In this document: one piece after another, positions 13,012-47,907 of the stretch
How positions within the stretch are numbered: position 1 is the first letter of the stretch
How the letters are laid out: each line of letters opens with the position of its first letter
DNA from: a virus
Strand: one strand, 5' to 3'
Length of the DNA: 64,000 nt
Virus record (IMG/VR): IMGVR_UViG_3300042879_003054
Translations under genes and position numbers: made by a program
Notes under the pieces: model-generated
Database searches by the model: none
The model's input: the letters and a program-made list of their open reading frames with translations, nothing else
What the model was told of the DNA's origin: nothing

Positions 13012-13121
13012 AAGTATGAGTATAGGGATTACTCGTTTACTGATTTCCTTCACTACCCTCAAGTGAAGGTAAGATGAGAGACGTTTTTATACACCCCATA
13101 GGTCCCGGTTAATGGGTGTTT
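13012..13121 (-). ncRNA. PhotoRC-II-like cis-regulatory RNA in psbA leader
   Basis: stems ACACCCAU/AUGGGGUGU and CCUUCACU/AGUGAAGG; loop GGGAC can pair with GUCUC; position upstream of psbA. Confidence 0.75.
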
Positions 13122-13169
13122 AACAATGTTAAGAATTATGAGGAATTCGTAACATTTGTTTACCTATTT

Positions 13170-44700: not shown

Positions 44701-46086
44701 TTATTTGATAAATTGCTTCCAATACTCATAGGAAGTCATTTCTTCGTTCTTAGTTGCTTGATAAGAACGAACTCTTGATTCACCATTTTTATCTGGTGCA
44801 ACCATATGAGTTTTTATTTTCTTTGATGTTGGTGCTTCTTTCTTCTCTTTCTCAAATGCTTTATGAACTTTTGCGGCATCATCATACATATGAATACTCT
44901 TAGCACCACTTTGCTTTGCTACTGCATTCGCAACATCAACTTTCTTCTTACCAATATCACCACCTTTCATCCCACCAGTATAGTGAATCTTTGACTTATC
45001 TACATCAACACCGTACTTTTTCAAATGTCCTTGAAATTCACTTGGTTTATCAAACTTAGAACGAGCAGTAATAAGATGAACATTTTGTCCTCTTGCCTGT
45101 TTTCTCTTAATGTCCTTAATTACTTTCTTATTTGGACTTGAAGTTTCCTTGAACTTCTTAGCACTTTGAAACTCACTGAAATCATATGAGTGTCCTTTTT
45201 CCAACTTATGAGTATTGAACTCTTGGTTGCTTAAACTCTTAACTCTCTTTCCAGATTCATCTTTGACGTGAACCTGAACATTTGGTTTGCCCTTCTTTCC
45301 GTGCCCAAATAGGGTCTCATCCACATCATATGCGTGAACTGTTCTTTTTGGTCTAGTTCCTCTTGCCTTCTCTTCAATATACTCTTCAAGAATTGCCGCA
45401 GTAAACTCTTCACTGATATGCTCAAACATCACTTCTGCTGCTTCATAACTTTCTGCAAAATCAGCATCAACTAAAGTTTCAATTACATAATTATAAATGT
45501 TTTCTGTTTCTTCTCTTTGTGCTGCATAATAAGCACCAAGTGCTCTCTTAATTCTTTGCTTCTTACTATCACCTTTGAAGGTTTTGCTCTTTGAATGAAC
45601 GAAATCACTAATTGTTTTACTGACATCAGCACCTACGTCAATTTTTTCATTTACATATTCCTCTTTGTAACCTTTTGCTGCAGAACTCCAATAGTCACCC
45701 CAAGATGCTTTATTTGCTTTTGCTTCTTCTGGTGATGATGGTTTAAATGTTCCACTAGTTTTACGAATAGAACCTTGTGGTTTTCTTACTTTTTTCTTAG
45801 TTCTTGCTTTTGCTGCCAAAGATTCAATTTCTTCCTTTGATGGTGGTTTATCCTGAATTTTTTTTGTTACTGGATTCCAGTGTGCTTCATTTACTTCAAC
45901 TTCTTCTTTCTTTACTGACGCAACAAAACCAGGAAGTTGTGGTCCTGCTTTCTTTGCTCTTGCTGCTCTTCTACGAGCAATTTCAGCATCTGCCTTATTT
46001 GCAAATTCTTTTTGTCCCGCAATATCTGGATGTTCTGCTGCAACACCTTCAGTATAAAAACTTTTATATGAATTTCTTAAAGACAT
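44701..46086 (-). CDS. modular protein with C-terminal HAD-like domain
   Basis: YDVDETL, ITAR, K, YDD; Glu-terminated modules; TATAAATA upstream. Confidence 0.8.
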   Translation of the reverse strand: MSLRNSYKSFYTEGVAAEHPDIAGQKEFANKADAEIARRRAARAKKAGPQLPGFVASVKKEEVEVNEAHWNPVTKKIQDKPPSKEEIESLAAKARTKKKVRKPQGSIRKTSGTFKPSSPEEAKANKASWGDYWSSAAKGYKEEYVNEKIDVGADVSKTISDFVHSKSKTFKGDSKKQRIKRALGAYYAAQREETENIYNYVIETLVDADFAESYEAAEVMFEHISEEFTAAILEEYIEEKARGTRPKRTVHAYDVDETLFGHGKKGKPNVQVHVKDESGKRVKSLSNQEFNTHKLEKGHSYDFSEFQSAKKFKETSSPNKKVIKDIKRKQARGQNVHLITARSKFDKPSEFQGHLKKYGVDVDKSKIHYTGGMKGGDIGKKKVDVANAVAKQSGAKSIHMYDDAAKVHKAFEKEKKEAPTSKKIKTHMVAPDKNGESRVRSYQATKNEEMTSYEYWKQFIK

Positions 46087-46148
46087 CTTTTTAGACTGTT
46101 TTTAGTTATTTATAAAAAAATAGGAGGGGCAATGCCCCTCCTATCAAT

Positions 46149-46241
46149 TTACTTTTTAATCATCACTATTTTAGCTTGGTGACGACGATTTTCTTTTTGT
46201 TTTTGTTCTTTAATAAGTTGAAGGACATTAATTTTTTTCAT
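46149..46241 (-). CDS. 30-aa basic peptide
   Basis: MKKINVLQLIKEQKQKENRRHQAK...; ATGA overlap. Confidence 0.5.
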   Translation of the reverse strand: MKKINVLQLIKEQKQKENRRHQAKIVMIKK

Positions 46242-46402
46242 TTGATTGTTTCCCCCGACTTCTGCATAGAAAGTTTGTTTCCATTTTCATCAACATAAAA
46301 CATAGTACCACGATAAATTTCTACTCTTGGTTCACATTTAAATGTTTGATTGGGACGGTTTGTAGTGTCATATTCAACACCACGGTATACAACTTTTGAC
46401 AT
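46238..46402 (-). CDS. DUF4278-like small protein (54 aa)
   Basis: VVYRGVEY and IYRGT motifs; AAGGAG RBS. Confidence 0.75.
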   Translation of the reverse strand: MSKVVYRGVEYDTTNRPNQTFKCEPRVEIYRGTMFYVDENGNKLSMQKSGETIK

Positions 46403-46431
46403 TAGGTTTCTCCTTAGTTTTTAGGTTAAAG

Positions 46432-46663
46432 AGCGTTCCTTCAGTCGGCTTTTGCGTCTATTTTACACGTCTTTGGTGAGATTTGTTTAATCTCCCAAAT
46501 TAAATCATTCTTTGCTTGTTTAGGAATGTCTTGTTTATGAACTCTTCCTACAATCAATTGTGCTTGTAAGCAAGATAGAATGAGTGCTTCCATAGATGAA
46601 CGTTCCGTTCCGAGTCGGCTTACTTCCGTCTACATTCGCAATTCGCAAATAGCAGATGAACGT
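46432..46663 (-). ncRNA. tandem glutamine riboswitch (glnA RNA-like) aptamers
   Basis: CGUUCAUCU...AGACGGAAGUAAGCCGACUCGGAACGGAACG and CGUUCAUCUAU...AUAGACGCAAAAGCCGACUGAAGGAACG; upstream of a YRG gene; TTGACT-18-TATAAT promoter. Confidence 0.7.
46441..46593 (-). CDS. 50-aa ORF nested within the second aptamer
   Basis: MEALILSCLQAQ...PKTCKIDAKAD*. Confidence 0.6.
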   Translation of the reverse strand: MEALILSCLQAQLIVGRVHKQDIPKQAKNDLIWEIKQISPKTCKIDAKAD

Positions 46664-46728
46664 TAGGGACTTATTATATTCCCTTGTACGTTATATAGTC
46701 AATTTTTTTTGTTATTTTTGTTACAATT

Positions 46729-47907
46729 TTAGAGTTTAAATCCACTAAAAGAATCTTTTGTAATATCCTGCTTAATGCCACCAACCACATAAGATTCTAC
46801 TTCCGTTTCCTGTGGAGCAACTTGAAGTCCCTTAGAGGAAATCCAATGTTCAGTCCAAGGAAGTGGATTATTCTTTGCAGAAATATCATAGAGTGGTTTG
46901 AGTCCAATTGCCTTCATTCTACGGTTTGCAATCCATTCAACATAACTCCAAAGAAGTTTGTCGTTTAGACCAATCATAGAACCATCTTTGAACAGATACT
47001 CTGCCCACCTCTTTTCCTCATTTACACAATTCTCAAAGGCACCTCTTACCCATTCCTCTTCTTCTTTAGCAATTTGTTGCATTTCTGAATCATCCCCTTC
47101 ACGCCACTTATTGAGGATGTTTTGAGTAATAACAAGGTGCTGATTTTCGTCTCTTGCGATGAGAGAGATAATTTTAGCGGATCCTTCCATAAGTTTGAGT
47201 TCACCAAACGCAAAACTGCAAGCGAACGAGACATAAAACCTGATACCTTCGAGAATGTTGACATTGGCAATTGCCCTATAAAGTTTTCTCTTTAATTCAA
47301 TTCTACTTTCTTTTGCATATCCAGCACCCTCTTGTGCAAAAATCCAATCATTAGATGTTCCATATTGTTGTGCAGAATTAATAAAATCATCATAAGCTCC
47401 TGTGACTGAGGATGCTCTTTCTAAAATTTTATCATTATTCAAGATGGAATCAAATACTTCAGAGGGGTCTGGATAAACATTCTTAATGATGTAAGTATAA
47501 GAACGACTATGAATCATTTCCATAAATTCCCACACAGTCATACAAGCTTCCAATTCAGGAAGAGAGCAATAAGGAATAAATGCCATTCCAGGACCACGAC
47601 CCTGAACTGAATCTAAAAGAATTTGATATTTTAAATTAGAAGTAAAGATGTGCTTTTGTTCTGGACGAAGAGTTTGATAATCAGCACGATCCTTCTGTAA
47701 AGAAACTTCTTCTGGTCTCCAGAAATATCCCAACTGTTGTTGAGTTAATTTATCAAAGACTGGATACTTATATGAATCGTACCTTTGAACTCCAAGTGGA
47801 GATCCAAAAAACATTGGTTGTTTTTTGGAGTCTACGTAAGAAGTATTAAATACTGTCATTCCCTGTATTTCTTTTTTTGAATTAACTCTAAATTTTACAA
47901 CTGTCAC
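46729..47907 (-). CDS. nrdB: ribonucleotide reductase class Ia beta subunit
   Basis: FWRPEEV, LLDSVQ, E.IHSRSY, LEGIRFY.SF, RDE..H, VAPQE. Confidence 0.97.
   Translation of the reverse strand: MTVVKFRVNSKKEIQGMTVFNTSYVDSKKQPMFFGSPLGVQRYDSYKYPVFDKLTQQQLGYFWRPEEVSLQKDRADYQTLRPEQKHIFTSNLKYQILLDSVQGRGPGMAFIPYCSLPELEACMTVWEFMEMIHSRSYTYIIKNVYPDPSEVFDSILNNDKILERASSVTGAYDDFINSAQQYGTSNDWIFAQEGAGYAKESRIELKRKLYRAIANVNILEGIRFYVSFACSFAFGELKLMEGSAKIISLIARDENQHLVITQNILNKWREGDDSEMQQIAKEEEEWVRGAFENCVNEEKRWAEYLFKDGSMIGLNDKLLWSYVEWIANRRMKAIGLKPLYDISAKNNPLPWTEHWISSKGLQVAPQETEVESYVVGGIKQDITKDSFSGFKL

Follow-up and report, generated by a model that had tools for sequence, protein, structure and literature searches.

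A conserved small-protein gene nested inside an aptamer of a putative tandem glutamine riboswitch in cyanophages

How can a ligand-binding RNA fold and a protein-coding gene occupy the same nucleotides, and what would such an arrangement imply for the expression of both? The question is raised by a short locus in a viral DNA stretch of 64,000 nucleotides (IMG/VR record IMGVR_UViG_3300042879_003054), hereafter the window. An earlier note, made from the letters alone, had described a phage promoter followed by two glnA-RNA-like aptamers, the second of which encloses, within its P2 stem, a 50-codon open reading frame (ORF) that starts in the 5' arm of the stem and stops in the conserved core, with a DUF4278-like gene and a 30-aa basic peptide further downstream. 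Each of these elements was recovered in the present analysis, at the coordinates given below, and the phage origin is likewise supported; the proposed sharing of nucleotides between the two aptamers did not hold up.

The source of the window is a freshwater, T4-like cyanophage of Kyanoviridae-like affiliation, given that it carries a PhotoRC-II RNA (13033-13131, minus strand, 67.9 bits in an Rfam scan), that the nearest database records for the locus are the Kyanoviridae cyanomyoviruses DSL-LC02, DSL-LC03 and S-SRM01 from lakes and reservoirs (77-84% identity), and that the locus DNA is found exactly in many lake-water metagenomes. All features of the operon lie on the minus strand, as does the ribonucleotide reductase beta gene (46729-47907) whose end is situated just upstream. 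A sigma-70-type promoter, TTGACT-18-TATAAT (46702-46673), matches at 11 of 12 positions and has its predicted transcription start a few nucleotides before aptamer 1, while a strong intrinsic terminator with a 12-bp stem and a T-run occupies 46119-46145; bounded by a promoter at one end and a strong terminator at the other, the stretch of ~550 nt between them is a self-contained small operon. Of 62 related loci, 58 have a perfect GTA-N8-TAC box just upstream of the -35 element, where shuffles give an expectation of 0.025 per locus. In the window itself this NtcA-type box is degenerate, reading GTA-N8-AAC (46711-46724), with one mismatch and a distance of 8 nt to the -35 hexamer. Judged by its sequence, the operon opens with a tandem glutamine riboswitch of type 1 (glnA-type) as its leader, behind which come an IF17-like DUF4278 gene and, coupled to it, a basic peptide.

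Aptamer 1 (46606-46662) is uninterrupted and consists of a P1 helix CGUUC/GAACG, a P2 hairpin and the core GACGGAAGUAAGCCGACUCGGAACG. It aligns with the whole Rfam Glutamine model RF01739 at 46664-46602 with 31.3 bits (E 1.1e-4), the gathering score being 35, and a scan of the window at gathering thresholds accordingly returned no riboswitch match at the locus. In the covariance-model check proposed in the earlier note, aptamer 1 was matched below the gathering score and aptamer 2 was left unreported. Both P1 and P2 of aptamer 1 are reproduced by the MFE fold of the isolated unit; its core departs from the consensus in having CUCGGAACG in place of GAAGGAACG, with the junction ACGGAAGUA kept. 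A linker of three nucleotides, GAA (46603-46605), separates the two aptamers; it measures 3-4 nt in relatives, and among 107 of them, taken from the matches listed, it reads GAU in 50 and GAA in 7, with GGUU, GAAU and others also occurring. The Rfam alignment places the 3' P1 strand of aptamer 1 at the first GGAACG (46611-46606), followed by GAA and then by CGUUC. The earlier claim that the P1 strands of the two units share nucleotides, so that both could not fold fully at once, therefore fails as a general feature, the required register being possible only with the GAA linker of 7/107 relatives; what is general instead is that the 3' strand of aptamer 1 and the 5' strand of aptamer 2 are mutually complementary and, in the MFE fold, can form a small competing hairpin.

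Aptamer 2 is split around a gene. Its 5' half (46592-46602) comprises the P1 strand CGUUC (46602-46598), a single A and the P2 arm UCUAU (46596-46592), all of which are also present in the uninterrupted aptamer 2 of cyanophage S-CREM1, and its 3' half (46434-46461) comprises the P2 arm AUAGA (46461-46457) and the core CGCAAAAGCCGACUGAAGGAACG (46456-46434), which ends with the P1 3' strand (46438-46434). The two P2 arms are separated by 130 nt, and the loop between them encodes the 50-codon gene (46593-46441). This gene directly follows the P1 5' strand: its AUG covers P2 positions 4-6, with the A and the U as members of P2 pairs 4 and 5. At the other end of the gene, the last codons run through the P2 3' arm into the core, where the UGA stop (46443-46441) lies within GACUGAAGG. 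RF01739 reported no match to aptamer 2, because the 130-nt insert is larger than the model allows. The core has ACGCAAAAG where the consensus has ACGGAAGUA, with the E-loop GAAGGAACG kept, and these deviations, like those of aptamer 1, recur in short-form relatives that score near the RF01739 cut-off. Both strands of the CGUUC/GAACG helix P1 are present in both units; since these strands are invariant, covariation of P1 in aptamer 2 cannot be scored. Thermodynamic modeling gives the long-range P2 helix a pair probability of ~0.9 and, as in the MFE fold, does not predict P1 of aptamer 2, preferring the hairpin between the 3' strand of aptamer 1 and the 5' strand of aptamer 2. The predicted accessibility of the AUG shows no clear difference between nascent and full-length RNA.

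Relatives of the locus provide the means of judging whether this layout is meaningful. Scanning IMG/VR for the 24-nt core of aptamer 2 yielded at least 119 loci, and among the matches listed 66 have an ORF-bearing P2 and 41 a short P2, and 12 loci are truncated or odd. A nested ORF in the same register thus occurs in 66/107 classifiable loci among these matches, a recurrence that places the layout far beyond chance. In all 66 long forms listed, the first in-frame AUG lies 8-10 nt past the G of GUUCA, and the frame closes at the UGA of the core; the ORFs have 49-66 codons and encode 61 distinct proteins, so that the nested frame, whose lack of conservation had been named in advance as grounds for abandoning the idea, is kept throughout. 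A core variant, GACGCAAAUGACUAAAGGAACG, provides a UAA stop at the same place and gives the protein the tail WDAND. The P2 helix itself covaries: counted on junction-anchored arms (a MAFFT alignment anchors the ATG and places gaps in the 5' arm), of 40 distinct arm pairs from long forms, 38-40 have pairs 1-5 formed, with C-G/U-A exchanges at position 3 and A-U, C-G, U-A and U-G at positions 4 and 5, and a helix of at least 5 bp forms in 38/40 arm pairs, compared with ~13/40 when partners are shuffled.

Individual phage genomes show the same range of forms. In S-CREM1 the tandem recurs, with a P2 of ordinary, short length in aptamer 2, whose 3' half is one base off that of the window; this uninterrupted aptamer scores 33.5 bits on RF01739, and the tandem was annotated as a glnA riboswitch, at 44 bits, by its authors (PMC9964418). 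The layout of the window is present in DSL-LC02, DSL-LC03 and S-SRM01, where the nested ORF is annotated as a hypothetical protein; aptamer 1 of DSL-LC02 scores 35.6 bits and DSL-LC03 34.2 on the same model. In P-SSM4 each of the two aptamers encloses an ORF (PSSM4_169.2 and 169.3), and the P2 arms differ yet remain complementary. The core motif is essentially restricted to phages, in view of its near absence from ~185,000 prokaryote species genomes, where a DNA-pattern scan returned 4 matches, three in MAG contigs and one in a 189-kb contig of a Prochlorococcus single-cell assembly.

Four RNA libraries of metatranscriptome type, from four studies, contain contigs of 85-99% relatives that run continuously from the core of aptamer 1 through the nested ORF to the DUF4278 start. 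These contigs are compatible with transcription of the whole leader, weakly so, as DNA carry-over is possible and they cannot prove it. Some contigs show joints that skip 46458-46595, a 7-9-nt loop replacing the ORF; RNA processing was considered as their source and rejected, the contigs being short-form relatives, and both short and long forms thus exist in nature. Contig cover is confined to 46169-46651, limits that were likewise rejected as transcript ends, as the relatives diverge there.

The 50-aa product of the nested gene (46441-46593) has two cysteines, C8 and C43, both invariant in the family, and belongs to PHROG 504, a family of small cyanophage proteins (E 0.0039 for the window protein, E 1.6e-9 for a relative, L028). 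Across interior codons of the window's 50-aa clade, dN/dS is 0.12 in frame and 0.88 and 2.65 in the other frames, third codon positions are the most variable, and length differences amount to whole codons; this pattern, which confirms the coding nature suspected earlier, argues that the ORF is a real protein gene under purifying selection. AlphaFold2 with the family alignment predicts a two-helix hairpin (pLDDT 84.7), while Foldseek against the PDB gave nothing for the protein below E 2.8 and a Pfam search found no domain in it. Profile searching collected 257 representative clusters at 50% identity and 1076 at 90%, none of them credibly named. The JGI name 'indole-3-glycerol phosphate synthase' attached to 50-aa homologues looks like annotation noise. 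At least two homologues, L135 and L140, are free of any aptamer, and these free-standing genes indicate that the protein family exists independently of the RNA. The DAKAD tail of the protein is dictated by the RNA core, and the nested gene has no Shine-Dalgarno (SD) sequence of its own, its initiation region being made only of the 3' strand of aptamer 1, the linker, and the P1 5' strand and P2 arm of aptamer 2.

Nested genes are found in aptamer 1 as well, in 35 loci among the matches listed, with an AUG 9-11 nt past the G of GUUCA and a stop between 13 nt before the core and 10 nt into it, the stops including a UAA within GCAAGUAAG. The A3 family of aptamer-1 proteins (PHROG 6471) is homologous to the family of the window (hhalign 95.8%, E 7.7e-9); the A2 family has a signal-peptide-like N-terminus, and no homology between it and other nested families was established by hhalign (probabilities 10% and 8%). 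Across the ~100 nested ORFs of both aptamers, there is no spacer between stem and start, and the distance from stop to core never exceeds 13 nt on the upstream side. In locus L040 aptamer 1 is long and aptamer 2 short, the reverse of the window, and the DUF4278 proteins of the two are near-identical; phages so similar in this gene that differ in which aptamer is occupied show that the modules are exchanged.

Downstream of aptamer 2, the putative expression platform (46410-46433) is a hairpin, seen in MFE folds, in which an anti-SD segment CUCUUUA (46433-46427) pairs with the SD sequence UAAGGAG (46416-46410). The anti-SD adjoins P1 of aptamer 2, many relatives of either form share this hairpin, and the platform and its 31-36-nt spacing are alike in both forms. 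The IF17-like gene that follows (46238-46402) encodes 54 aa with two YRG motifs and matches DUF4278 (PF14105, the N-terminal region of IF17) at E 1.6e-4 over profile positions 2-46 of 57, with 22.4 bits against a cut-off of 25.3; against PHROG 5049 its E-value is 2.8e-7, and a two-YRG protein lies downstream in 101/107 loci among the matches listed. The 30-aa basic peptide gene (46149-46241; PHROG 545, E 0.0014) overlaps the DUF4278 stop in an AUGA and is, on this arrangement, predicted to be translationally coupled to it. Peptides of the MKKLN.LQLIKEQKQKE..RRH type overlapping the DUF4278 stop are kept in many relatives, and most loci listed have in this third place a small coupled ORF that belongs to one of a few recurring types. 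The link between glutamine riboswitches and DUF4278/IF17-like genes, which the earlier note had stated for cyanobacteria, is supported by published work (Klahn et al. 2018, PMC6212724); in the model for gifB of Synechocystis, nucleotides adjoining P1 mask the ribosome-binding site and glutamine binding melts the helix (Klahn et al. 2018, PMC6212724).

Taken in this frame, folding of aptamer 2 and translation of the nested gene would be mutually exclusive on one RNA, because the start and end regions of the ORF are made of aptamer nucleotides and a ribosome on it would exclude the folded aptamer. Transcription reaches the 3' half ~135 nt after the 5' half, and early ribosomes could load onto the nested AUG before the aptamer closes; once the 3' half is made and the ORF is free of ribosomes, P1 and P2, stabilized by glutamine, would hide the AUG and the region just upstream. 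Binding of glutamine would also loosen the helix adjoining P1 (CUCUUUA/UAAGGAG) and thereby turn on the IF17-like gene, as proposed for gifB. A single sensor would then have opposite outputs, with low glutamine favoring the nested protein and high glutamine the IF17-like protein. The UGA lies 7 nt before the anti-SD, and a ribosome that terminates there may in addition open the SD hairpin and so provide a translation-coupled route to the DUF4278 gene, an effect that would work against a clean reciprocal switch.

Several other accounts of the locus have to be weighed against this one. That the insert is a non-coding structured RNA extending P2, with a merely coincidental ORF, could draw on the extensive internal pairing of the MFE fold, but the in-frame dN/dS of 0.12 against 0.88 and 2.65, the greatest variability at third positions, 61 distinct open frames of 49-66 codons with whole-codon indels, the invariance of both cysteines, the PHROG membership and the homologues outside any aptamer leave this reading effectively refuted and scarcely credible. 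Somewhat better placed, though still improbable, is the idea that aptamer 2, once split, has ceased to be a single aptamer: its 5' half would serve as the platform of aptamer 1 through the GAACG-linker-CGUUC hairpin and control the nested gene, while the 3' half would act alone on the DUF4278 SD. The MFE fold, which pairs the 3' strand of aptamer 1 with the 5' strand of aptamer 2 and omits P1 of aptamer 2, agrees with such a division, as does the strong conservation of the 3-4-nt linker; covariation of P2 across 130-190 nt, however, is not expected if the halves act separately, the same two halves constitute an ordinary aptamer in short-form relatives, and for the genes nested in aptamer 1 there is no aptamer further upstream that could exert control.

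A more serious competitor, which we nonetheless regard as unlikely, treats the nested ORF as a passenger in a length-tolerant aptamer loop, translated whenever the mRNA is present, with ribosomes melting P2, the aptamer refolding afterwards and no selected coupling between the two. It is indeed the P2 loop that varies within the family, close relatives and single samples contain short as well as long forms, homologues such as L135 and L140 live without any aptamer, and the expression platform does not differ between the forms. What a passenger does not readily account for is that all of the ~100 nested ORFs start within the stem and stop no further than 13 nt ahead of the core; as no nested ORF is clear of stem and core, every translation event must unwind P2 on both sides. 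Nor does it account for a gene that dispenses with its own SD and initiates on aptamer strands only. The fixed register of start and stop could, on the other hand, reflect shared ancestry and phage genome compaction and not selection for coupling. On balance the locus is probably best explained as a gene-bearing tandem riboswitch operon in which folding and translation exclude each other and the nested and IF17-like genes have opposite outputs. A stronger version, held only tentatively, is that the ligand-binding fold must assemble around a translated gene, that this yields two opposite outputs, and that the nested proteins are low-nitrogen phage effectors acting on host nitrogen or redox control.

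Placed against the literature, the locus combines a riboswitch class that is known with a gene-bearing architecture for which no earlier description was found. Tandem glutamine riboswitches and the link to DUF4278/IF17-like genes were already known (PMC2864571, PMC6212724, PMC9481103), and glutamine aptamers of cyanophages have received only brief mention (PMC5473149, PMC9964418), a 2017 survey having counted only two among cyanophage genomes and judged riboswitch use by phages to be rare (PMC5473149). The accessible part of Weinberg et al. (2010, PMC2864571) mentions tandem copies and does not mention nested ORFs. In the literature on glutamine riboswitches and cyanophages, a gene inside an aptamer was not found, although a remark on long P2 inserts in Ames & Breaker 2011 is possible.

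The implications extend from the census of these RNAs to their design. Aptamers are usually viewed as compact domains that do not code for protein and that precede the genes under their control, and here a conserved gene lies inside one, an arrangement that would tie the sensing of a metabolite to the kinetics of RNA folding and to translation, in a manner undescribed for any riboswitch class found; if the proposed mechanism is true, loci with both aptamers occupied would toggle two nested genes against the downstream operon. One 24-nt core motif matches at least 119 viral contigs, and because of the insert most of the aptamers it detects are invisible to the Rfam model, which changes the count. 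The operon also joins a homologue of an IF17-like glutamine synthetase inactivator to large families of small proteins (1076 clusters at 90% identity for the family nested here) and makes the reading and rewiring of host nitrogen status by cyanophages directly testable. RNA switches with two outputs could also be modeled on this natural architecture.

Known systems in which a reading frame and a structured RNA are intertwined offer partial parallels. In the Mg2+-sensing mgtA leader of Salmonella, mgtL encodes a leader peptide for which the act of translation matters and not the product. The phage locus resembles it in having an ORF within a ligand-sensing leader, where translation would set which helices form; it differs in that the product belongs to a 50-aa family under purifying selection, with free-standing homologues, and in that the ORF fills the aptamer hairpin. 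A regulatory leader peptide of the attenuation or mgtL type was considered for the nested ORF and rejected on the dN/dS of 0.12, the confident AlphaFold2 fold and the homologues without any leader. Group I introns carry homing endonuclease ORFs in their peripheral loops, and the phage arrangement likewise puts a gene in a length-tolerant loop of an RNA that folds around it by long-range pairing, whereas its host RNA is a putative metabolite sensor and the ends of the ORF are embedded in the closing helix and the core. An intron-loop homing endonuclease gene was also rejected, there being no nuclease or maturase domain, no Pfam domain and no PDB fold match.

The closest comparisons are with the glutamine-sensing RNAs themselves. 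With glnA RNA (RF01739), known from the gifB/IF17 leader (PMC6212724), the phage units share the P1 helix CGUUC/GAACG, a P2 hairpin and most junction and E-loop nucleotides, and their tandem arrangement is that of the tandem type-1 glutamine riboswitches (Sherlock et al. 2022, PMC9481103). As in the gifB leader (PMC6212724), they lie 5' of a DUF4278/IF17-like gene and have an SD-pairing segment adjoining P1, with an NtcA-type box at the promoter in relatives. Unlike glnA RNA, they are phage-borne and both cores are off the consensus; the Rfam model scores aptamer 1 below its cut-off and misses aptamer 2, and the phage P2 closes over a 130-nt loop occupied by a conserved protein gene whose start lies in the stem and whose stop lies in the core. 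The Yfr6/Downstream-peptide RNA (RF01704) of marine picocyanobacteria, a type-2 glutamine riboswitch (Weinberg et al. 2010, PMC2864571) that was once thought to be non-coding, similarly has both a glutamine aptamer and a short ORF of the YRG type; that ORF lies downstream of the aptamer, whereas the phage ORF lies inside it.

Upstream of aptamer 1, the first of the two glutamine riboswitch units leading the operon, the NtcA-box consensus GTA-N8-TAC is present at 58 of the 62 related loci (within L006-L124), 7-9 nt 5' of the -35 hexamer, against an expectation of 0.025 per locus. The window itself carries a degenerate NtcA-box-like element, GTA-N8-AAC (46711-46724, minus strand), with one mismatch to that consensus. 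The box is centred at about -51, one helical turn 5' of -41.5, the classical activator position.

At the other end of the operon, the conserved gene for the 30-aa basic peptide (46149-46241, minus strand; PHROG 545, E 0.0014) follows the DUF4278-type YRG gene and, in the window as in its relatives, is translationally coupled through an AUGA or UAAUG overlap. Several types of coupled peptide recur: MKKLN.LQLIKEQKQKE..RRH.AQL, MNTYFVRYLKKKAKKE...AQLNMAKQPQVA and a hydrophobic one from marine phages, MLVTAEILAAS..FL.IIYAE. In L058 and L072 the basic peptide motif is fused to the YRG protein as its N-terminus.

The proteins encoded within aptamer 1 at freshwater loci (alignment A2; within L018-L122) begin with MTKALLLLAWVPLLS, which resembles a Sec signal peptide, and continue with a C-x35-C segment; together, these sequence features suggest an exported, disulfide-bonded peptide. 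At a minority of loci (L118, L121), the nested ORF reads the aptamer core in another frame and stops after P1, yielding the tail ...ETQKPTEGT... (proteins P0128, P0146, P0148). Such ORFs may reflect either natural variation or frameshifts introduced during assembly.

In some marine loci (L015, L027, L080, L093, L104), the expression platform that links P1 of aptamer 2 to the SD of the YRG gene is doubled in length by an additional conserved hairpin, GGAACACGGAUCAC...GUUAAAGGUG, so that aptamer 2 and that gene are about 60 nt apart.

Directly 3' of the operon terminator lies a same-strand lysine-rich ORF of 461 aa (44701-46086, minus strand). Other structured RNAs occur in these phages: in P-SSM4 (L004), the tandem glutamine riboswitch lies about 100 nt downstream of a manA RNA (RF01745; 115-300, 184 bits), so that two structured leaders adjoin, and the window contains a PhotoRC-II RNA (RF01717; 13033-13131, minus strand, 67.9 bits), the psbA-associated motif of cyanophages.
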